From: Escherichia phage ECBP2 | DNA: 64,000 nucleotides | Strand: one strand, 5' to 3' | Sequence record: NC_018859.1 | In this document: positions 50,591 to 63,127 of the stretch, piece after piece | Position numbering within the stretch: the first letter of the stretch is position 1 | How the letters are laid out: each line of letters opens with the position of its first letter | Translations under genes and position numbers: made by a program | The notes under the pieces: generated by a model | Seen by the model: only the letters and a program-made list of their open reading frames with translations | Told to the model about the DNA's origin: nothing | The model's database searches: none

Positions 50591-50616
50591 TAAAAAAGGA
50601 CTCTCCTAAGAGAGCC
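50591..50616 (-). terminator. rho-independent terminator
   Basis: GGCTCTC-TTAG-GAGAGTCC hairpin + U6 on the - strand. Confidence 0.5.
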
Positions 50617-50684: not shown

Positions 50685-50815
50685 CCGACGGATGTTCGAG
50701 GACTGTTCCTCTCCCTAGCATCGGCCCCATACGGGTAAGATTAAATTAAGTTTAGGTTAGTTGAGCCAGAATAGCTCACATAGCCCTCTGATACTCACAA
50801 GGGCTATAGATGTTA
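50685..50815 (-). other. conserved 3' non-coding element, copy 1
   Basis: About 130 nt starting at the stop of gene 50813-51064; core CTCACATAGCCCTCTGATAnnCACAAGGGCTATA...GATGTTAC is shared with 56348-56465. Confidence 0.5.
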
Positions 50816-51064
50816 CTCTGTGGCTCCGTCGAAGCGTAGGATTGCTGTTGGAACAGGAATCACAACCATGTCAATCTCTAAACGGAAGAGATGGCCTGTG
50901 CTTAGCTGAACTGCTGTTACCGGTTTAGCGATACCACCAACAGATGCTGAGGGGATTCGAATAAAGAAATCCCCCGGATATTCCGTTGCACGAAATACAT
51001 CTCCCGGTGACATATCCTTTACTTGGGTAATTGATTCAGGAGGGGTTTTATTAGCAATTTGCAT
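50813..51064 (-). CDS. small GDVF-motif family protein
   Basis: VKDMSPGDVFRA... Confidence 0.5.
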   Translation of the reverse strand: MQIANKTPPESITQVKDMSPGDVFRATEYPGDFFIRIPSASVGGIAKPVTAVQLSTGHLFRLEIDMVVIPVPTAILRFDGATE

Positions 51065-51297
51065 TACAGACCTTTCTTAGCACGATCTTTGGCAGTTTTG
51101 CCAGTGCGGATACGGTGGGAAACATTAACCAGCTCGCCGCCTTCGACGATGGTCACGCTTTTGTTTTTCGCAATATCAAACACAGACTTCTCTGTACCAC
51201 CCAGACGAATCTGACGCGGTTCACTTTGGGTCTGAGTTGACTTGGATTCAAACTGGAACGGCTGACGGATGGCATCAATTGCGCTAACTTTAGACAT
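51064..51297 (-). CDS. hypothetical protein
   Basis: 77-aa ORF. Confidence 0.4.
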   Translation of the reverse strand: MSKVSAIDAIRQPFQFESKSTQTQSEPRQIRLGGTEKSVFDIAKNKSVTIVEGGELVNVSHRIRTGKTAKDRAKKGL

Positions 51298-51325
51298 GTT
51301 TTTATTACCTTAAATTAAAGAGAGA

Positions 51326-51739
51326 TTAAACAACGAATTGGAACGCTTCGTATCCAAACTTGTACGAGAAACCGTGCTTGAACTTCACTACACGACCACG
51401 ATCACGGAAAGCTTTCAGACGACTGCTGAACCCAGCCATCGGCTCAGGGTCAATAGGGCTGCGAATCTTCATAGCTACAGAGTGCAGCTTGAAGCGCTTA
51501 CCAGTGCTACAGGCCATCATCACGTACTCCATACGAGTAGTCCAGATGTTAAGCACCATGCTTGTTTTCTCCGCTGACCAACCAGTCTTGCGGGCGATTT
51601 CCTTATGGATGTTAAGTTCCAAAGGAAGTGGGAATTGCTTGTTGAATGAAGCCGGATAAAGCTTGACCAGAAGATCAATGTTTTCTTTATACGTTAAGTA
51701 AGCCAATTTCTTGCTTACGTTGGGGAATTTCCCAGCCAT
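51326..51739 (-). CDS. ProQ/FinO-domain-like RNA-binding protein
   Basis: LYPASFNKQFPLPLELNIHKEIARKTGWSAEKTSMVLNIWTTRMEYVMMACSTGKRFKLHS follows the FP..F...PL.I...S...L..Y....Y...G..R.L pattern of ProQ/FinO N-domains. Confidence 0.5.
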   Translation of the reverse strand: MAGKFPNVSKKLAYLTYKENIDLLVKLYPASFNKQFPLPLELNIHKEIARKTGWSAEKTSMVLNIWTTRMEYVMMACSTGKRFKLHSVAMKIRSPIDPEPMAGFSSRLKAFRDRGRVVKFKHGFSYKFGYEAFQFVV

Positions 51740-51937
51740 TTTTGAAGCTCCAAAACAGCGCCGAAAAGAGAGGCGTCATAGTAGCTAAAGGGAGGAGAGA
51801 AGAGGGCTTATTTACTTGCCTTTTTCTGTCCGTTAATGTACCAGATAACTGAACCATCAGGCTGTCGTTGACCGAAGCCTTTCAAGTTAACCATTTCTTC
51901 TTCAGAGTAGGCACGTTTTCTCACTGATTTTCTCCTG

Positions 51938-52195
51938 TCAGTAGAAGGTGTGTGTAGAGTCGTCGTTCATAGATAACCAAACGAAGAAGACAATCACACA
52001 GAAAGCAATAATACCGAGAGTTGCAAGGATTATAGTGTTAGCTAATGTGATATCTAACACTCTTTGCAGGTACATAAAGAATTGTATGATACCACATAAC
52101 CCTAGCACGACCCCAATAACAATAAGGAGCCAGTACGTGCAGAGAAGGACTGCATCCAATAGTGATACATACTTTGGATCATCTTTATGTTTCAC
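51938..52195 (-). CDS. small multi-TM membrane protein
   Basis: Three hydrophobic segments. Confidence 0.4.
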   Translation of the reverse strand: MKHKDDPKYVSLLDAVLLCTYWLLIVIGVVLGLCGIIQFFMYLQRVLDITLANTIILATLGIIAFCVIVFFVWLSMNDDSTHTFY

Positions 52196-52448
52196 TAATC
52201 TTCTCCACTAAATCCAGAGTTGCCGATTCAAATACAACACCAACTGGCATATTGGATGCCATATTACGAACATATCCACTCTGCATCGACACAGCTCGGT
52301 GGTATTCACAACCATTAGAGCTTTTGTTTACTTTCATGTAAATGGTTTGTTCTTTATCTTCTTTCAAAGTAAAGAAAGAGCCGATAGAAACACCTGCCAC
52401 CATTAGAGGAATATCCGCAATACGAGTTTTGTTAATGGTCAGAGCCAT
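52185..52448 (-). CDS. small protein, divergent GDVF-family member
   Basis: IADIPLMVAGVSIGSFFTL. Confidence 0.4.
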   Translation of the reverse strand: MALTINKTRIADIPLMVAGVSIGSFFTLKEDKEQTIYMKVNKSSNGCEYHRAVSMQSGYVRNMASNMPVGVVFESATLDLVEKISET

Positions 52449-52451
52449 TGC

Positions 52452-52706
52452 TTACTCCTTAATAGTTGCTTCAGCTTTGATAGGAATAACAGCAACATCT
52501 TTACGAGGCGCTGTCGCTCGGCCTGTGTTAAGACAGGCTACGAGTCTGTGCTCATCCGCACCTTTAATGCAGAGTCGAGTTGAGAACTCGGTAGACAGCA
52601 AGATGTATAAATCACCATCTTCACTGTTAGGATACATAAAGCAATCCCCAAGTCGCAAAGCACTGAGGGGTATTGAATTTTTACCTGCTGGCATGTTAAC
52701 TTTCAT
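52452..52706 (-). CDS. small GDVF-motif family protein
   Basis: LSALRLGDCFMY. Confidence 0.45.
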   Translation of the reverse strand: MKVNMPAGKNSIPLSALRLGDCFMYPNSEDGDLYILLSTEFSTRLCIKGADEHRLVACLNTGRATAPRKDVAVIPIKAEATIKE

Positions 52707-52716
52707 TTCATCACCT

Positions 52717-53013
52717 TTATTTGTGAGAGTTTACGAACTCTTCAAGAACATTAACTGCATCTCGATATGCATTGGTAACTTTATACCAGTGATCAGTACC
52801 GAATGCACTCGGTTTGACGATTCTAACCAGACGACGGTGATAACGCACTGAGTAGACTAGATTCTCATAAGTCACCCTCAGTTCGTTTTTGCGTTCCATC
52901 TGAATAGATTTAAGGTGTCGCTTTGTTTTCCAGACTGTTACCGGCATAACCCTCTTACCTTGTTGTAAAGTATGGACCAATTTATGAAAGAACTCTCGGA
53001 AGAATGCTTTCAT
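52717..53013 (-). CDS. hypothetical basic protein
   Basis: 98-aa ORF. Confidence 0.4.
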   Translation of the reverse strand: MKAFFREFFHKLVHTLQQGKRVMPVTVWKTKRHLKSIQMERKNELRVTYENLVYSVRYHRRLVRIVKPSAFGTDHWYKVTNAYRDAVNVLEEFVNSHK

Positions 53014-53231
53014 AAATAGGGGGAGGGGACGAATCCTCCCATATCCTATTAATTAATGTTGCATGTAAGACCTAACAATCCGATGCTGTAGTGGATAGCG
53101 TAAAACGCTTACCGGCATTAAACCCAGCCCATGAGGGGCTTATGTGATTAAAATGCTCAACATTGAGCGGTTAGTTGATAGGAGATCTGAAGTCCTATCT
53201 CAAAGGACTCTCGTAAGAATCCTTCACGATA

Positions 53232-53486
53232 TTACTTAGTAATAAAGACTGTCACCTTATCCATTACCCAGCCTATCAACATAAGGAAAGGTAAGAAGAG
53301 GATAAAGATCAGCATAAAAGGCCAGAAGAATATTACCGTCCAAATAGAATATTCATCAGGCTTACCACTCCATGAGGAATGGAAGAAGTTGTAGAGTGTA
53401 TTGGTTTTGAAGCACCATTTAACTACAATGGCTGCTAACCACCAACCAATAACATAAATCAGGAGGACATACGCTGCTGTAATCAT
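53232..53486 (-). CDS. small multi-TM membrane protein
   Basis: Three hydrophobic segments, Trp-rich. Confidence 0.4.
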   Translation of the reverse strand: MITAAYVLLIYVIGWWLAAIVVKWCFKTNTLYNFFHSSWSGKPDEYSIWTVIFFWPFMLIFILFLPFLMLIGWVMDKVTVFITK

Positions 53487-53713
53487 TCACCGTTCCATTG
53501 ATAGTTGCGAGTTACCACGTTTCCGTGGATAAGGAAGTGCTGGCGGCGAAGGATATCTTTAACGTTGTAGTAGGCAGCGTTACCGAGATGGCCTTCTTTA
53601 ATAAGCCAACGAAGATTACGGATATCAACCAACAGCATTTTTACTTGCTGTTGGCATGAAGTTTGAGCTGCTGTTTCAAGTAGAGCTTTCGTATCAGAAT
53701 AATGACCGGACAT
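53483..53713 (-). CDS. hypothetical protein
   Basis: 76-aa ORF. Confidence 0.4.
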   Translation of the reverse strand: MSGHYSDTKALLETAAQTSCQQQVKMLLVDIRNLRWLIKEGHLGNAAYYNVKDILRRQHFLIHGNVVTRNYQWNGE

Positions 53714-53714
53714 A

Positions 53715-54041
53715 TCACCACTCCTTACCTGTTGTTGTCACAGAGCCACCACACAGCTCACCACGGGAGATGAAGTCATAACGTGACCAATCACCTTGGG
53801 TAGCCATATCACGCTTTGCATAAGCCTTCTCGTCAACAGCACCGCCATTGGAACAAGAAGCACCAGCATAACGCATATCAATTTCACCACTAGGAATCTT
53901 CTCCCCGCTGTGCCAACGGGAAACACAGACACCTTCTACCGATAATGCACACCATCCATCAGGACGATGCTGTACGCAGCCTGTAAGAGCTACACAGGCG
54001 ATAAAGATACAGGTTAAGGTAATTACACCACCCCAGCTCAT
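53715..54041 (-). CDS. Cys-rich lipoprotein
   Basis: Signal peptide ending in lipobox LTGC; eight further Cys. Confidence 0.45.
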   Translation of the reverse strand: MSWGGVITLTCIFIACVALTGCVQHRPDGWCALSVEGVCVSRWHSGEKIPSGEIDMRYAGASCSNGGAVDEKAYAKRDMATQGDWSRYDFISRGELCGGSVTTTGKEW

Positions 54042-54178
54042 GATCCCTCCTGAAGCGCCTTACGGCGGCTATCTCGCCAAGCCATCCAAGTGTAGATTTT
54101 GAGTTCTTCTCTTTCTTCTTCACTGAACAAACGAGGAGTGAAGATATCATCAAACCATTTATTAAACTCAGGGGTCAT
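54038..54178 (-). CDS. small protein (46 aa, below track cut-off)
   Basis: AGGAGG RBS; stop overlaps the lipoprotein ATG. Confidence 0.3.
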   Translation of the reverse strand: MTPEFNKWFDDIFTPRLFSEEEREELKIYTWMAWRDSRRKALQEGS

Positions 54179-54294
54179 ATACCCTCCTACGTTGATTGGT
54201 AGCCCCAAGATGCCGTATCTTATCCAACGACCCCATACAGACCTATAGGCTATTGTATGGCGCCGAAGGAGTACGCAAGCATCTTAGGGACATA

Positions 54295-54370
54295 TGGTGC
54301 ACCCTACAGGATTCGAACCTGTAACCAACGACTTAGAAGGTCGCTGCTCTATCCATTGAGCTAAGGGTGC
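54295..54370 (-). tRNA. tRNA-Arg (anticodon UCU), CCA encoded
   Basis: GCACCCTTAGCTCAATGGATAGAGCAGCGACCTTCTAAGTCGTTGGTTACAGGTTCGAATCCTGTAGGGTGCACCA folds as a cloverleaf: 7-bp acceptor, GCTC/GAGC D-stem, anticodon loop CUUCUAA, T-arm ACAGG-TTCGAAT-CCTGT. Confidence 0.85.
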
Positions 54371-54379
54371 TTGAATTGT

Positions 54380-54688
54380 TTATAAGGAGAAAGACTTCTT
54401 ACAATCCTTATCTTCAAAAGTGTAGTAGCCTGTTGTATCAGGGAAGTAGGCATACTTTGTTTCTTTGCCATCAGTAGCCATGACACGATTACCAGAAGTT
54501 GTTTCTACAAACAGAAGCCCATCTCTTACCATACCATTAGATTCTTTGATACCAGTTAAGCTATGCTCTTTAAGAGTGCATTGCTGAACACTCTGATACT
54601 TAACTCCAATCTCTGCACTATTAACAGAGATGATACCAATGGTTGTCATTAGTAGTAAGGTTGAGATGATAAAATGCTTTTGTTTCAC
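54380..54688 (-). CDS. secreted protein
   Basis: Signal peptide MKQKHFIISTLLLMTTIGIISVNSA. Confidence 0.45.
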   Translation of the reverse strand: MKQKHFIISTLLLMTTIGIISVNSAEIGVKYQSVQQCTLKEHSLTGIKESNGMVRDGLLFVETTSGNRVMATDGKETKYAYFPDTTGYYTFEDKDCKKSFSL

Positions 54689-54706
54689 ATTAACCTCTGG
54701 ATTTAT

Positions 54707-54916
54707 TTAACTGAAGATACGCAAGGCCACATCGTGATAGATATGACCGGGGACTTTGTGCTGTTCTATTTTCAAACAGCGTTTACAGACACGAGATACA
54801 CGAGACTCTTTCGCTTCAACTGGAGTGTCTTTAGCGTGAGTGATATGTAAGTTTTCAGTGATCACCCACTCGTGTTTACATCCAGAATCTTCGGGCTTTT
54901 TCTTACGAAAGAACAT
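54707..54916 (-). CDS. small zinc-ribbon-like protein (family with the next two)
   Basis: CKHEW...CKRC. Confidence 0.4.
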   Translation of the reverse strand: MFFRKKKPEDSGCKHEWVITENLHITHAKDTPVEAKESRVSRVCKRCLKIEQHKVPGHIYHDVALRIFS

Positions 54917-54924
54917 AACACCTC

Positions 54925-55089
54925 TTAGATCAAATCTGTTTTCTTGTGCTTACCACACACTTTACAGCGGGAGTAGATACGCAACCCTTGCTGCTCTCCT
55001 CCAGCAATACGATGTGTAACCTTTAGTTCATAAGTAGAAAGATCTTCCCACTCATGGAAATGAAAGAAACGTTTGAACCATTTAATCAT
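54925..55089 (-). CDS. small zinc-ribbon-like protein (54 aa, below track cut-off)
   Basis: MIKWFKRFFHFHEWEDL...CKVCGKHKK. Confidence 0.35.
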   Translation of the reverse strand: MIKWFKRFFHFHEWEDLSTYELKVTHRIAGGEQQGLRIYSRCKVCGKHKKTDLI

Positions 55090-55098
55090 AACGATTCC

Positions 55099-55245
55099 TT
55101 AGATTATGTCACGATGACTAACTTCACCACACACTTTACACTGGATATCGTAACGTACGCCCCTTGAATCTCCACAGATCAGCGGACGGGTGGCAATAAT
55201 CTTCCAATCATGACAATGAAAGACACGCTTTATCCACGTAATCAT
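55099..55245 (-). CDS. small zinc-ribbon-like protein (48 aa, below track cut-off)
   Basis: MITWIKRVFHCHDWKII...CKVCGEVSHRD; paralog of the previous. Confidence 0.35.
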   Translation of the reverse strand: MITWIKRVFHCHDWKIIATRPLICGDSRGVRYDIQCKVCGEVSHRDII

Positions 55246-55246
55246 A

Positions 55247-55504
55247 TTAAACACACGCCGGTAGTTCAATTAACTGAGGAGCACGACAAGGACCATCTTC
55301 ATACACACCAACCAACGTTGGCATGTAAGGCCCAGCGCACTGGTATTCGTCGAACAGTTCGTTATAGTTAGGCTTCCACTTCCAAGCCCACACATAACCC
55401 ATTCGATCAATGGCAATGTAACGAGTGTTCAGAGGAACCTGCATCATCACATCACCAACTGCTATTACTTTCGTAATAACTGCTGCTCGGAAATTTGTCT
55501 TCAT
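55247..55504 (-). CDS. hypothetical protein
   Basis: 85-aa ORF. Confidence 0.4.
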   Translation of the reverse strand: MKTNFRAAVITKVIAVGDVMMQVPLNTRYIAIDRMGYVWAWKWKPNYNELFDEYQCAGPYMPTLVGVYEDGPCRAPQLIELPACV

Positions 55505-55752
55505 GGCGCTTTAATCTCAATCTGAACATTGACAACAAATACAGTATGGTTTGCACTGTACACCGAAGTGCCTATGATTGGCTTGTCATCACTGAGGATT
55601 TCAACAGCGTGTTCAAGGTTGATCTTCAGATGAAGACGCCCTGATTCCATGAAGAAATCACCAGCACGTATCTCACCGAACTTGGCTGGCACACCGATAG
55701 AGGGTATCAGTATGTCAGTGCGACCTTTACGGTCAAATAAACGATTAAACAT
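55501..55752 (-). CDS. small GDVF-motif family protein
   Basis: FGEIRAGDFFME. Confidence 0.45.
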   Translation of the reverse strand: MFNRLFDRKGRTDILIPSIGVPAKFGEIRAGDFFMESGRLHLKINLEHAVEILSDDKPIIGTSVYSANHTVFVVNVQIEIKAP

Positions 55753-55796
55753 ATCAACCTCTCTTGTTAGTTTAAGTAAGAGTTATCCCTTAATTA

Positions 55797-55827
55797 AAAC
55801 AACAAAGGCCACCCCGAAGGGCAGCCT
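55797..55827 (-). terminator. rho-independent terminator
   Basis: GGCTGCCC-TTCG-GGGTGGCC hairpin + U-run on the - strand. Confidence 0.5.
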
Positions 55828-55831
55828 CTTA

Positions 55832-56029
55832 TTAAGCACTACGCAGTTTGTTATTCAAGAAGCGATCTTCTGCATTATATAGGAATGCATAGAATAATTC
55901 TTTTGCTACATCCCGATCGCAATTGAGACATTTAGAAACCTGTAACAACAGGCCATCGCGACTGTTAGGATGGTCAATTATCGCAAGACGAATAATCTCA
56001 CGGATACCAACATCATGCTCAGCCGCCAT
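55832..56029 (-). CDS. hypothetical protein
   Basis: Track start 56041 is GTG; ATG (MAAEHDVG) at 56029. Confidence 0.35.
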   Translation of the reverse strand: MAAEHDVGIREIIRLAIIDHPNSRDGLLLQVSKCLNCDRDVAKELFYAFLYNAEDRFLNNKLRSA

Positions 56030-56159
56030 AGAACCAATCACCTTGACGCTTACGGATGTTAGTGGTCAGACGAAGCATGGCAGACTCAATCTTCAGAGCA
56101 CCATTTGCTACTGCATCCATACGTTCAGGACGGTTCATACGTTTGGTTGTCTTTTTCAT
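56019..56159 (-). CDS. small basic protein (46 aa, below track cut-off)
   Basis: MKKTTKRMNRPERMDAVANG... Confidence 0.3.
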   Translation of the reverse strand: MKKTTKRMNRPERMDAVANGALKIESAMLRLTTNIRKRQGDWFYGG

Positions 56160-56190
56160 AACGTTCTCTCTTTGTTAATGGAGGCAGGAT

Positions 56191-56223
56191 TGCCAGTTAA
56201 TATAAAGGGAAGCCCTACACGTT
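56191..56223 (-). terminator. putative terminator hairpin
   Basis: GGAAGCC...GGCTTCC 7-bp stem with 11-nt loop followed by a U-rich run on the - strand. Confidence 0.35.
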
Positions 56224-56347
56224 AAGGCTTCCGCTTGTACAAACTGTCGAGAACTCTCTACCCCTAGATTGTTCTCTATCCCAAACCGATACATACCCCT
56301 ACATATCGGAATGCCATTCGAAAATTAAACAGGTTTTAGTCTATCAC

Positions 56348-56465
56348 CGGATGTTTGAGACAAGTCTCGCCCTAGCGGTGAGCCATATGGCATTGAGATT
56401 ATAGTTAATTGAGGAACATCCTCACATAGCCCTCTGATAAACACAAGGGCTATAAGTCGATGTTA
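56348..56465 (-). other. conserved 3' non-coding element, copy 2
   Basis: Core shared with 50685-50815; begins at the stop of gene 56463-56687. Confidence 0.5.
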
Positions 56466-56687
56466 CTTATTAGTTAGTCGAACGTTAGGCACAAGTTTAA
56501 CTGCTGCTGTTTTCATCTCTCCAATGACCTTACCGGTAGAGAGATTAACAAAATAAGCAGTGACTTCACCACCACAAGCTGTACGCATATAATAACTGCT
56601 TCCAGTTCTGTCAAACTGAAAAACGTCTCCCGGCTTTACATCACCAAGAGTTGTGACGCTTTGCTTTTTATCAATATCAATCTTCAT
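56463..56687 (-). CDS. small GDVF-motif family protein
   Basis: LGDVKPGDVFQF. Confidence 0.5.
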   Translation of the reverse strand: MKIDIDKKQSVTTLGDVKPGDVFQFDRTGSSYYMRTACGGEVTAYFVNLSTGKVIGEMKTAAVKLVPNVRLTNK

Positions 56688-56918
56688 TTAACCACCAATA
56701 TTCGTTACTTGTACATTAGGTACAGAGATAACTTCATGATCTTCAGGTATCTGGAACAAAGTCCCCTGACCAAGACCAACGACACGGCGCATACCCTGCA
56801 CATAGGTGTCTGTCTTTAGGTAGAGGTGTTCAGTGTTATTTTGTAATCGGAATACGTCACCCGGACGTAGATCGCTGAGCTTTTTAGTAACAACTAAAGA
56901 TGGGAGATTAATTTTCAT
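56688..56918 (-). CDS. small GDVF-motif family protein
   Basis: LSDLRPGDVFRL. Confidence 0.5.
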   Translation of the reverse strand: MKINLPSLVVTKKLSDLRPGDVFRLQNNTEHLYLKTDTYVQGMRRVVGLGQGTLFQIPEDHEVISVPNVQVTNIGG

Positions 56919-57157
56919 TACTTACTCTCGATAGCAATTTTGTATTCATACTTAGAGACTTCAGCGTCCGCAGAAACCTTAAGTATATCAGAGGTGTTGT
57001 TTAATTGCATTGCCGATGAATATTGAGATGATACCTTCATCCAGAAAAAGGTGTCACCATCGGGGTTTTGAAACTTGAAGATGTCCCCATTAGAGAGGTC
57101 ACCGAAAGTTAACTTATTTTGTTTAGGCTTGGGGATGATTTCGAAATTCATTTTCAT
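56918..57157 (-). CDS. small GDVF-motif family protein
   Basis: FGDLSNGDIFKF. Confidence 0.5.
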   Translation of the reverse strand: MKMNFEIIPKPKQNKLTFGDLSNGDIFKFQNPDGDTFFWMKVSSQYSSAMQLNNTSDILKVSADAEVSKYEYKIAIESK

Positions 57158-57345
57158 TTGATTAACACCAAATCAGTACGACGTTCGAAGGAAGGGGAAG
57201 ACTCACCATTCCACTGAACAAGATAACAGAGAACACCATCAATTATTGTTCTCTGACGAATAACACCTGTAATAGTTCCACCAACAAGGCGAACGGTGTC
57301 GCCAATGGTAATTTTAACCTTTGAGCGCATCTCCTGTTTCCTCAT
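57154..57345 (-). CDS. small protein related to the GDVF family
   Basis: KITIGDTVRLVGGTITGVI...LCYLVQWNG; start taken at an internal Met of track ORF 57154-57483. Confidence 0.35.
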   Translation of the reverse strand: MRKQEMRSKVKITIGDTVRLVGGTITGVIRQRTIIDGVLCYLVQWNGESSPSFERRTDLVLIK

Positions 57346-57619
57346 TCTGGCGTTTAATTTCTTCAGTGAGTTGCTTATTGAGATCTTGAATACGCTTAAT
57401 CTCCCAACCCAAAGAAGCCAAACGATCATTACGTGCTTCGATTTGCTCCTGCATCTTTGCCAGCTTAAGTCGAGTAGCATCATTAAAGTCTTCCTCTAGC
57501 TTAAGAAGGAACTCGTAACAACGCTTCCAGCTTGCTGATTTATTTCTTAAAATAATAAATCCTAGAGTAGAAATCGTTACAGTGAGTACGAAAAGAAATT
57601 TATAAACCTCTAAAGTCAT
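57314..57619 (-). CDS. membrane-anchored coiled-coil protein
   Basis: N-terminal TMD FLFVLTVTISTLGFIIL then coiled-coil. Confidence 0.4.
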   Translation of the reverse strand: MTLEVYKFLFVLTVTISTLGFIILRNKSASWKRCYEFLLKLEEDFNDATRLKLAKMQEQIEARNDRLASLGWEIKRIQDLNKQLTEEIKRQNEETGDALKG

Positions 57620-57820: not shown

Positions 57821-58207
57821 TCAGTCACGGGCACTATTATTGAACACTAAATCACCACAATACATAGGATTGGTATACCACTTTGGCACCCCTTCACTCT
57901 TACTTTGAAAGTGTGTACCGCTGTACAAAGGCACATAATCTTTCTTCAGTGCACGTCTTGCAAGCCGCTCGCTCTCTCTGATTGACTTCTTAGTCAGAGG
58001 GTTATCATCACGAATCAGCTTTACATAACGCTTAAAAGGTTTCTCCTTCTTTAATAAGACGGGTATCCACTCGAACTGGTTTCGTTGGTTTATAACCTGC
58101 TCGGCAGTCAGTTTTCGTTGTGACATTCTGTTTATTACGGTATCCGCTACTAATGCTTTGCAAGCGGTTGGCTGATTCCCTGCCTCATAATAAATAGTCA
58201 ATGTCAA
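57821..58207 (-). CDS. cell-wall hydrolase-like protein (SleB/CwlJ-type)
   Basis: YYEAGNQPTACKALVADTVINRM resembles the N-terminal motif of SleB-family hydrolases. Confidence 0.4.
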   Translation of the reverse strand: MTLTIYYEAGNQPTACKALVADTVINRMSQRKLTAEQVINQRNQFEWIPVLLKKEKPFKRYVKLIRDDNPLTKKSIRESERLARRALKKDYVPLYSGTHFQSKSEGVPKWYTNPMYCGDLVFNNSARD

Positions 58208-59040: not shown

Positions 59041-59250
59041 TTAATCAAGTAAACCGAATGACTTCCAACTGCGTAGCAGGATTGTACCGTCATCCATAGT
59101 TACACATAATTTTAGTAGTTTCTTATTGGCACTACTCACCGTTGTAATTCTTCCGGTTGTGCATTTACCTTTATTGCTGTAAAGATATACAACACGACGG
59201 CCTAACAGTCGGGAAGGAGCTTTCTTAAATTCTGAGATGTTAGTGATCAT
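59041..59250 (-). CDS. hypothetical protein
   Basis: 69-aa ORF. Confidence 0.4.
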   Translation of the reverse strand: MITNISEFKKAPSRLLGRRVVYLYSNKGKCTTGRITTVSSANKKLLKLCVTMDDGTILLRSWKSFGLLD

Positions 59251-59471
59251 AATGCTTGATACCTTTGAATGTGTTCAATACGGGTAGATTGAGCAAAGGA
59301 CGCTTTAACAGCCATTTTCCTAACTTCTTCTTTACGCTGATTGGTGTGTACAGTATCCCAATGGTTGTTATCACGTTGGCGCTGTAATATCTTACTGCAT
59401 TTGCGATGGTTTCCCGTGCTGCGATGTTTCTCACAAATAGGACACTTGCCAAAATTGCTACTGAATATCAT
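59247..59471 (-). CDS. small zinc-finger-like protein
   Basis: CPICEKHRSTGNHRKC. Confidence 0.4.
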   Translation of the reverse strand: MIFSSNFGKCPICEKHRSTGNHRKCSKILQRQRDNNHWDTVHTNQRKEEVRKMAVKASFAQSTRIEHIQRYQAL

Positions 59472-59695
59472 TTTCTCAATCCCAACTTTCTTAAGATACG
59501 GCCTAACGTTGTTTCTTGCGTGATAATATAGCTGATCGCTTCACGTTCCAACGTTTCGATCTTCATTGGCGACGGATACCATTCACCGGTAATCACACAT
59601 TTACACTCAACGCCATACTTTTTAGATAGGCGGTAATGTTGACCGTTGACAAGGTTTCTATAAATCGTGGTATGCGTAATTAACATGATCATCAC
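59468..59695 (-). CDS. hypothetical protein
   Basis: 75-aa ORF, ATGA overlap. Confidence 0.4.
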   Translation of the reverse strand: MMIMLITHTTIYRNLVNGQHYRLSKKYGVECKCVITGEWYPSPMKIETLEREAISYIITQETTLGRILRKLGLRK

Positions 59696-61499: not shown

Positions 61500-62470
61500 T
61501 AGGAGAATGTTTAAATTGTTAAAGAGCGGTAAATCTATCAACGTGCTTTCTCACGTTATGCAACTGTTAGCCGTTGTTACGCTTTTCACTGAAGCGGTGA
61601 TTTGCTCAAGTGATGCTCATTATGGACCATGTTGTTTTTGCCGTCAATCACTTTTTTAATCTTTTTCGTCGTTCCCGCTATTGGGAGGATATATCAACCC
61701 GCTTTATTGGGTTGAAGATTAAGCGATGAGGCTTAACCCATGATTCATATTGTTAAAGAGCGTTTAGCCTTTTATAGTGTCTGCTAATCACTACATCATT
61801 AAAGGCTTACTTGTTCATTAACGGGGCGCCTAAGCCCGAACTACCCGCTGCACTATGTGCCACCTTTCCCGCGATACGTTGATTTGGGAACTAGTTAACG
61901 TTGTTTTGTTAACTTGTGGTTAGTATGGACTACCTTAACCACGTTTGCAACCTCTTTTTTATCATCTTCTTTTATTCTTTTCCCTTATCTCGCGTGAATC
62001 TATGCGAAAGGGCAAGATGATAAGTCTGATTTGTCTTTTAGGAATCTAGTGCGCTTTCAAGCATTGACCATTTGAAAGTATCGAACAAATGAGGCTTATT
62101 TTGTTGCTCATCGTCCGCATGTTCACGTATGAATCAGGAATCAATTCTAGTGGTCAACTAAGCGCCTTATAGTAATGACGTTCCCGCCACCTGTAAGACA
62201 AATCATATTTTTAAAGAGCGGGATTTTTCAAGTCATCGCTGACTATGCTCACTATATATCAGGCTTTTTCCGGTGTCAATACTCTTTTTCAAGTATTTTC
62301 ACTTTCTAGCCTGATTTTTAAAGAGCGGGGCAATTTCTTGCCTTGTATGTTTTACATCGTACCCGATGAAATGAAGTATACATTAATCAGATGAGGTTGC
62401 AATAGGGTAAAGCAAATTATTTTAAACTTTTTCACTATAGGGAGGTAAAAGAGCGGGCGCACGTGATACA
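61500..62470. repeat. dispersed copies of an AAAGAGCG(G) motif in a non-coding region
   Basis: TTAAAGAGCGG-like sites at about 61515, 61753, 62214, 62325 and 62449, plus 63701; no ORF of 60 aa or more between 60793 and 62352. Confidence 0.45.
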
Positions 62471-62860: not shown

Positions 62861-63127
62861 TCATTCCCCATTTATATCACCCTCAATCAGCCCATGATTT
62901 AGCAGGTTAGCAAGTGATAATCCACCGTCAAAATATATAGAACGAAAATCATCGCGGGTAATTTCAAAATCAGCAAAGGCTAGCCAATCTTTAAGAGGCT
63001 GATATTCCATCCTGCAAAAAGTGATAACAGGTAACGTTATCTGACCATCAAGTGTGTTAAACATGATAGATTGCTCGCCAACAAAACAAGAAAAGCCGTT
63101 TGATAATTTAACTTCTTTAATAGCCAT
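62861..63127 (-). CDS. hypothetical protein
   Basis: 88-aa ORF downstream of 63154-63645. Confidence 0.4.
   Translation of the reverse strand: MAIKEVKLSNGFSCFVGEQSIMFNTLDGQITLPVITFCRMEYQPLKDWLAFADFEITRDDFRSIYFDGGLSLANLLNHGLIEGDINGE

Follow-up and report, generated by a model that had tools for sequence, protein, structure and literature searches.

A family of small phage proteins, probably SH3-like barrels, in the early region of Escherichia phage ECBP2

No part of a phage genome is less well understood than the orphan open reading frames (ORFans) of its early region, which are also the chief source of proteins for host takeover and anti-defence. We analyzed eight small open reading frames (ORFs), m1 to m8, in a 64,000-nucleotide (nt) stretch of Escherichia phage ECBP2 (NC_018859.1; hereafter the window), and assign seven of them, with high confidence, to one family of proteins with a predicted SH3-like beta-barrel fold. 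The closest described relatives are distributed among at least ten PHROG families (phrog_6570, 7431, 7832, 8365, 9955, 10911, 12612, 16423, 22099 and 34455), all of 'unknown function', which include those of N4 gp21 (phrog_7431) and LUZ24 gp7 (phrog_8365). The seven proteins and their distant homologs match these families, and the families cross-match each other; however, PHROGs keeps them separate and gives them no name, fold or function, whereas the evidence described below places them in one superfamily. The members from phiEco32, N4 gp21 and LUZ24 gp7, all annotated as hypothetical, match the family profile with E-values of 5e-7 to 7e-18, are ~75 amino acids (aa) long and have small hypothetical neighbors, and phiEco32 further resembles the window in carrying tandem runs (of four and three genes). 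They differ from the window copies in being 27-41% identical to them, and one-to-one orthology with phiEco32 is blurred.

Among better characterized proteins, Nip of Bacillus phage Phi3T is an early protein with SH3-like modules that inhibits a defence protein, the TIR NADase SpbK, by direct binding (PMC11984713). Nip differs in size (279 aa) and architecture (two predicted SH3-like domains and an HU-like dimerisation domain); compared by its description, it is a functional precedent only. The antitoxin VapX (6zn8_F) and HspQ (5ycq_A) are small SH3-like partner-binding proteins, but their resemblance to the phage family is one of fold, at 10-16% identity, with nothing indicating homology; neither an adjacent VapD gene nor sequence similarity to VapX was found, and no VapD-like or Lon-related partner gene is located nearby. 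The SH3-like, KOW and Tudor barrels of translation proteins (the C-terminal domain of ribosomal protein L2, domain I of EF-P, the KOW domains of Spt5/NusG, and Tudor) have no sequence or profile similarity to the family, either in Pfam or among Protein Data Bank (PDB) chains. What sets the phage proteins apart from all these barrels is an additional strand, conserved segments at both termini, an acidic character and the fact that they stand alone.

Sequence comparison places the window among the phiEco32-like E. coli podophages (subfamily Gordonclarkvirinae, Kuravirus/Suseptimavirus). Its 50-58 kb region matches 108 phage records, the best of them at 91-94% identity (TH34, Bas88, TH43, MLP3 and SU7), and in the matching records m1-m8 carry only the annotation 'hypothetical protein'. 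All eight small ORFs were confirmed on the minus strand, and most are preceded by recognisable ribosome-binding sites. The seven family members are as follows.

50813-51064, minus strand: m1, 83 aa, best match phrog_6570, motif PGDVF; last gene ahead of a terminator-like hairpin
52185-52448, minus strand: m2, 87 aa, divergent, phrog_12612, GSFF replacing GDVF; pairs in tandem with m3
52452-52706, minus strand: m3, 84 aa, phrog_7832, motif LGDCF
55501-55752, minus strand: m4, 83 aa, the most divergent member, phrog_22099, motif AGDFF, N-terminal extension
56463-56687, minus strand: m5, 74 aa, phrog_9955, motif PGDVF; in the tandem triple
56688-56918, minus strand: m6, 76 aa, phrog_16423, motif PGDVF; protein used for the structure model
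56918-57157, minus strand: m7, 79 aa, phrog_10911, motif NGDIF; in the tandem triple

An earlier note on this DNA had proposed that all eight ORFs form a family with a G-D-[VIF]-F motif, three of them in direct tandem. The motif is borne out with variants (PGDVF in m1, m5 and m6, GDCF in m3, GDIF in m7, GDFF in m4 and GSFF in m2), and so is the tandem triple, m7-m6-m5, whose genes abut or overlap by 0-1 nt. In addition, m3 and m2 form a tandem pair 3 nt apart, and the two further members are solo. The proposed membership stands for m1-m7, on the evidence of profiles, hhalign and the PHROG network, and falls for m8, for which hhalign against the family profile gave a probability of 1.8%, aligning only 12 columns around 'IGDTVRL', and which is not among the hmmsearch matches.

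Pairwise phmmer comparison of the eight proteins, with E-values computed for a database of only 8 sequences, gave the lowest values for m5-m6 (6e-8), m1-m6 (1e-6), m1-m5 (5e-6) and m5-m7 (1e-5), followed by m3-m6 and m4-m6 (2e-4). By this measure m1, m5, m6 and m7 are strongly linked, m3 and m4 weakly and m2 barely, and no link to m8 was found among the eight. A five-sequence hidden Markov model built within the window recovered m2 only at E=0.05 and m4 only at E=0.69, and was therefore too weak for these two proteins, which call for outside sequences or a deeper profile. A further profile was built from 116 distant homologs; each shares <40% identity with every window member, but all were first retrieved with a profile including m1-m7 and hence are not fully independent. 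Compared with all 768 stop-to-stop segments of the window, this profile matched m5 (3e-18), m6 (1e-16), m1 (7e-16), m3 (2e-15), m7 (1e-13), m2 (5e-11) and m4 (0.0046). Beyond m1-m7, no window segment was significant in this comparison, the next match having E=1.8. In hhalign, the m4 subfamily matched the family profile at 96% probability (E 3e-9, 55 aligned columns), m2 at 96% and m7 at 98%. In PHROG scans, m1, m2, m3, m5, m6 and m7 each had a best family of their own and cross-matched the others and phrog_7431. Taken by sequence, m1-m7 are homologous, and the 64-kb window contains no further member. The paralogs within the genome are 17-33% identical, which indicates that the duplications are old rather than recent. 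Candidate extra members at 51064-51297, 53483-53713, 55247-55504, 59041-59250, 59468-59695 and 62861-63127 were rejected, with hhalign probabilities of at most 6%.

The m6 protein was modeled by AlphaFold (predicted local distance difference test, pLDDT, 83) as a six-stranded SH3-like beta-barrel, in agreement with the small barrel suspected from the sequence alone; the conserved N- and C-terminal segments were modeled at low confidence (pLDDT 56-61). In a 123-sequence alignment, G20 is invariant, and M1, F23, G52 and V63 are kept in at least 93% of sequences. The conserved hydrophobic positions are I3, F/L14, L17, V22, Y33, M34, A46, V47, L49 and V66, and the only recurrent polar positions, D/E21, K/R35, T/S51 and D/N60, are moderately conserved. 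Most remaining positions have near-maximal entropy, with loops 26-31 and 37-45 also bearing indels. Model and alignment together place the conserved residues mostly in the barrel core or at glycines, whereas nearly all exposed positions, together with three loops, are hypervariable. Each protein consists of one domain, ~70-90 aa long, built on the core pattern MKI...F..L..GD(V)F...YMK...(A)V.L..G...V.(P)V, and the family alignments (A1 and A3) contain no conserved stretch of 7-10 columns. This conservation pattern describes a scaffold and not an enzyme, since hydrophobic residues and glycine fill most of the conserved columns. Among the 116 distant homologs the median isoelectric point (pI) is 5.4 and only 10% lie above 8, which argues against a typical nucleic-acid binder; the pI of the seven window proteins ranges from 5.2 to 9.4.

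A search of 1.84 billion proteins with the profile of the seven members and their close homologs (A2) identified 1,284 representative clusters (E<=1e-3); among the 150 clusters listed, nearly all are 69-100 aa long and match end to end. A second homolog search, with A3, yielded nothing further and no domain fusions. Predicted-structure matches in BFVD all come from many virulent phages that infect Gammaproteobacteria (Escherichia, Morganella, Proteus, Serratia, Erwinia, Vibrio, Dickeya, Klebsiella, Providencia, Yersinia and Pseudomonas); these proteins, N4 gp21 and PaP3 ORF65 among them, are uncharacterised. The family consensus matched 56 phage records in tblastn and had 0 matches in plasmids, and a scan of 185,579 species genomes with the m6 pattern found no true relative; one match, a chance 'DLRPGDVF' in a 344-aa protein of a high-GC metagenome-assembled genome, was rejected. 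The family is thus apparently restricted to phages. Comparison of the eight proteins and 123 family members with Pfam gave nothing at E<0.1 beyond scattered single matches, NCBIfam and PADLOC scans of the family gave no match, and the family profile found nothing below E=0.4 among all PDB sequences. No known defence or anti-defence family was matched in Pfam, NCBIfam or PADLOC, and the literature yielded no description of the family or of kuravirus anti-defence genes. We conclude that this is a new, unnamed family within a familiar category, that of small early phage ORFan paralogs with a common fold.

The number of members per genome varies. A profile scan of phiEco32 found nine (gp95-98 in tandem, gp104, gp109, and gp113-115 in tandem); TH34 has eight, PAS59 and the window seven, Bas88 and MLP3 six, and SU7 and Bas87 five. 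A single member is present in N4 (gp21), LUZ24 (gp7, E 8e-9) and Pa223 (gene 007), and the Pa223_007-type variant occurs in only four Bruynoghevirus records. On metagenomic contigs of big phages, proteins occur in which the domain is repeated 2, 5 or about 8 times in tandem, a repetition that fits modular use, as is usual for binding modules. The multi-repeat proteins are encoded at 10001-11218 of contig L006 (5 copies), 10001-11548 of L015 (5-6 copies) and 237-2741 of L008 (about 8 copies).

We further compared the members with those of six close relatives, in which the products of the neighboring genes mostly show 85-100% protein identity. The m1, m2 and m6 proteins are 61-99%, 66-99% and 74-95% identical to their counterparts, m5 is present in three of the six (59-91% identity), and m7 in two, being absent from the other four. 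Variation in m1, m2, m5 and m6 thus far exceeds that of their neighbors, m5 and m7 are present or absent, and relatives 91-94% identical in DNA carry 5-9 copies. By contrast with these, m3 and m4 are 95-100% conserved, with a ratio of nonsynonymous to synonymous rates (dN/dS) of 0.04-0.08 (0.04 for m3). Over all members dN/dS is 0.04-0.31 (0.15 for m1), so that they appear to be expressed, constrained genes under purifying selection. The high dN of m5 (0.23) goes with a high dS (0.73), and for m5 and m6 together the ranges are 0.13-0.23 and 0.48-0.73; this combination points to replacement by divergent alleles through recombination between lineages rather than to a burst of positive selection. 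Extra members occur where the window has none in TH34 (L009 7727-7984) and PAS59 (L011 5545-5772), so that array content differs through gain and loss at several sites and not only in the tandem triple. The earlier note had taken the degree of paralog expansion and divergence as typical of host-takeover or anti-defence effectors. Of that argument the expansion survives, as a real seven-member family in a gene set unusually variable between near-identical phages, whereas the paralogs proved to be old and under purifying selection throughout.

The family genes appear, by synteny and promoter matches, to be located in the early region, as had been supposed. The predicted transcription signals around them are as follows.

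62202-62279, minus strand: two strong sigma-70 promoter matches, by consensus match only, at the predicted head of the leftward early transcription unit
50599-50616, minus strand: terminator-like hairpin with a T-run after it, located downstream of m1

The two promoter matches, within 62279-62202, are TTGACA-17-TATAGT (11/12) and TTGAAA-18-TATGAT (10/12); a further strong sigma-70 match is located at 61647-61619, and all seven family genes lie downstream on the minus strand. The matches at 62202-62279 are the counterpart of a cluster of early promoters known from phiEco32 and SU10 (PMC4281155), the gene for the LUZ24 member gp7 is likewise part of an early block, and the family genes are syntenic with the phiEco32/SU10/YF01 block that was called early in the SU10 and YF01 papers, after the phiEco32 transcription studies (PMC4281155, PMC9965538). 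The hairpin is syntenic with an annotated terminator of SU7 (L001 3587-3628).

The best-supported account of how these proteins might act is as follows. The host sigma-70 RNA polymerase would transcribe the family genes early, in translationally coupled arrays. Each paralog would be a binding module without enzymatic activity that attaches stoichiometrically to a host protein of its own; this target, part of a defence system or else a host factor that is not essential, would be blocked or redirected. The array would then be a swappable accessory toolkit differing between otherwise near-identical phages. That the proteins act by binding to host or defence proteins is an inference to which we give even odds, and we regard a specifically anti-defence role as possible but unlikely. 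It is doubtful that the family represents a major unrecognised class of immune-evasion proteins or host-factor inhibitors in virulent phages of Gram-negative bacteria, in which an SH3-like binder scaffold would be diversified, arrayed, concatenated (5-8 domains) and exchanged, each copy neutralising a different target.

Genomic context offers functional clues that are suggestive, not probative. A distant homolog, P0052 (L007 158-397, also on a 122-kb contig), is preceded by a second member (L007 3-155, E 7e-5) and encoded directly upstream of a Gad2-like gene (PF26128; Gabija anti-defence). The 5-repeat proteins of two contigs follow a conserved gene pair encoding a GT4-conflict glycosyltransferase and a WGR-PARP protein, and genes for a T4-type RNA ligase and a phage sigma factor are close by. 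In the BASEL study, Gordonclarkvirinae resisted most tested defence systems without recognised inhibitors (PMC11990801).

Several observations weigh against binding of different host targets. LUZ24 gp7, the one relative assayed, was among 13 early proteins of that phage expressed in P. aeruginosa; growth inhibition was confined to gp4, gp6, gp9 and gp11, and gp7 was non-toxic (PMC4635203, Table S2); gp7 had no growth or biofilm phenotype (PMC4635203). This non-toxicity fits a non-essential or defence target, and fits equally well the absence of a host target. The conflict-type neighborhoods are three anecdotes rather than a statistic, and no family member has a demonstrated partner or phenotype. 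The closest solved relatives of the fold are RNA- or ribosome-associated, and the model, whose terminal segments are at pLDDT 56-61, does not define an oligomeric state. Finally, D21, K35, T51 and D60 could together make up a ligand site common to the paralogs, which would then be variations on a single function, such as a small-molecule sponge, and would not each bind a different target.

The solved relatives of the fold suggest a first alternative, that the proteins are nucleic-acid-binding regulators, with a KOW/L2/Tudor-like barrel that binds RNA, the ribosome or RNA polymerase and tunes early phage or host expression. The low pI of the distant homologs speaks against it, and we consider it quite unlikely. 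A second possibility is that the family serves phage-internal housekeeping, as chaperones or adaptors for replication or assembly proteins without a host target. Such a role would suit the strong conservation of m3 and m4, with their low dN/dS, and the non-toxicity of LUZ24 gp7, but not the variation of copy number (5-9) and presence among near-identical phages, the sporadic distribution in Bruynoghevirus, or the position of the genes in the early ORFan block, outside the replication and morphogenesis modules; it is very unlikely in our view. A third, to which we assign a slim chance, is that barrel oligomers act as a sponge for immune signalling nucleotides or another metabolite through D21, K35, T51 and D60, like the Tad and Acb sponges. 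The proteins are small, abundant and early, the few conserved polar positions are conspicuous on a surface that otherwise varies, the conserved terminal strands, not confidently placed in the monomer, could reflect oligomerisation, and one homolog adjoins the Gad2-like gene. However, no known sponge family was matched by sequence in Pfam, the pocket is so far hypothetical, and seven highly divergent paralogs together with proteins of 5-8 repeats fit many targets better than one ligand. The last alternative, that the similarity is due to chance or composition and the eight ORFs belong to unrelated families, which would have overturned the earlier proposal, has next to no probability, since alignment statistics exclude chance for m1-m7 (full-length matches down to E 3e-18 with a profile free of them and of close relatives, hhalign probabilities of 96-98% and a reciprocal PHROG network) and it is true only of m8, with its 12-column match, even if a 'DLRPGDVF'-type motif can occur by chance inside an unrelated 344-aa bacterial protein.

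The remaining small ORF of the set and several neighboring genes deserve a separate description.

57154-57330, minus strand: m8, 58 aa, not a family member; its stop overlaps the start of m7

The start of m8 is probably at 57330 rather than 57345, which sits 15 nt too far upstream, because a GGAG ribosome-binding site goes with the ATG at 57330 and the orthologs are annotated at 177 nt. The m8 protein has no PHROG match, and its homologs comprise only two near-identical clusters in 5.8 billion sequences. Its model suggests a separate, stand-alone KOW/Tudor-like SH3 mini-barrel, a resemblance seen in predicted structure only, as the Pfam KOW, SH3 and Tudor profiles were unmatched. The ORF at 59041-59250 was tested as a relative of m8 and found to be unrelated.

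Between m1 and m2, a gene at 51326-51739 (minus strand) encodes a 137-aa early protein that matches ProQ/FinO (PF04352, E 3.7e-6, 27.3 bits against a cutoff of 27) and may be a phage-encoded RNA-chaperone-like protein. Two small tandem paralogs at 54925-55089 and 55099-55269 (minus strand; 54 and ~48-56 aa) share a zinc-ribbon-like pattern, H-x-W ... C-K-V-C-G; they are mutually significant (E ~1e-9 among the 768 segments) and have no Pfam match. A possible third paralog at 54707-54916 (minus strand) has this pattern too but is not significant (E ~1). Directly upstream of tRNA-Arg(TCT) (54295-54370), a 102-aa ORF with a signal-peptide-like N-terminus (54380-54688, minus strand) has no Pfam match and no counterpart in seven relatives (SU7, Bas88, phiEco32, TH34, MLP3, PAS59 and Bas87), and therefore looks like a strain-specific insertion. 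The 101-aa coiled-coil-like protein encoded at 57314-57619 (minus strand) is annotated as 'DNA helicase' in relatives and in phrog_12154; as it has no Pfam helicase domain and only a weak coiled-coil match, this is probably a propagated annotation error. The gene at 57821-58207 (minus strand), in the early block and far from the lysis genes, codes for a SleB-type cell-wall hydrolase domain (PF07486, E 4e-7); the product is 95-98% conserved in the six close relatives and 87% identical in phiEco32.

LUZ24 (L016 7377-13075) and phiEco32 (L003 11931-19137) have in common a cassette of genes for a COOH-NH2 ligase, an amidoligase, GFAT, a RimK-like protein annotated as ribosomal protein S6 glutaminyl transferase, and a gamma-glutamyl cyclotransferase. 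The occurrence of the small-barrel family in both phages may reflect shared ancestry of their early/middle modules.

The reconstructed family merges at least ten anonymous PHROGs and >1,000 sequence clusters into one group with a predicted fold. Its members are present in the model phages N4, LUZ24 and phiEco32 and in Bas86-Bas91 of the BASEL collection, which are usable on E. coli K-12 with restored O-antigen. They form a concrete, small and testable gene set, for which the differences in copy number and alleles between 91-94% identical phages provide ready-made contrasts. If the proteins lack a host target, this would be an ordinary paralogous ORFan family. If they are inhibitors, the conserved scaffold with a variable surface would be interesting as a natural binder platform, and, should the doubtful larger class of diversified SH3-like binders prove real, it could help to explain how Gordonclarkvirinae resist most tested defence systems without a recognised inhibitor (PMC11990801).

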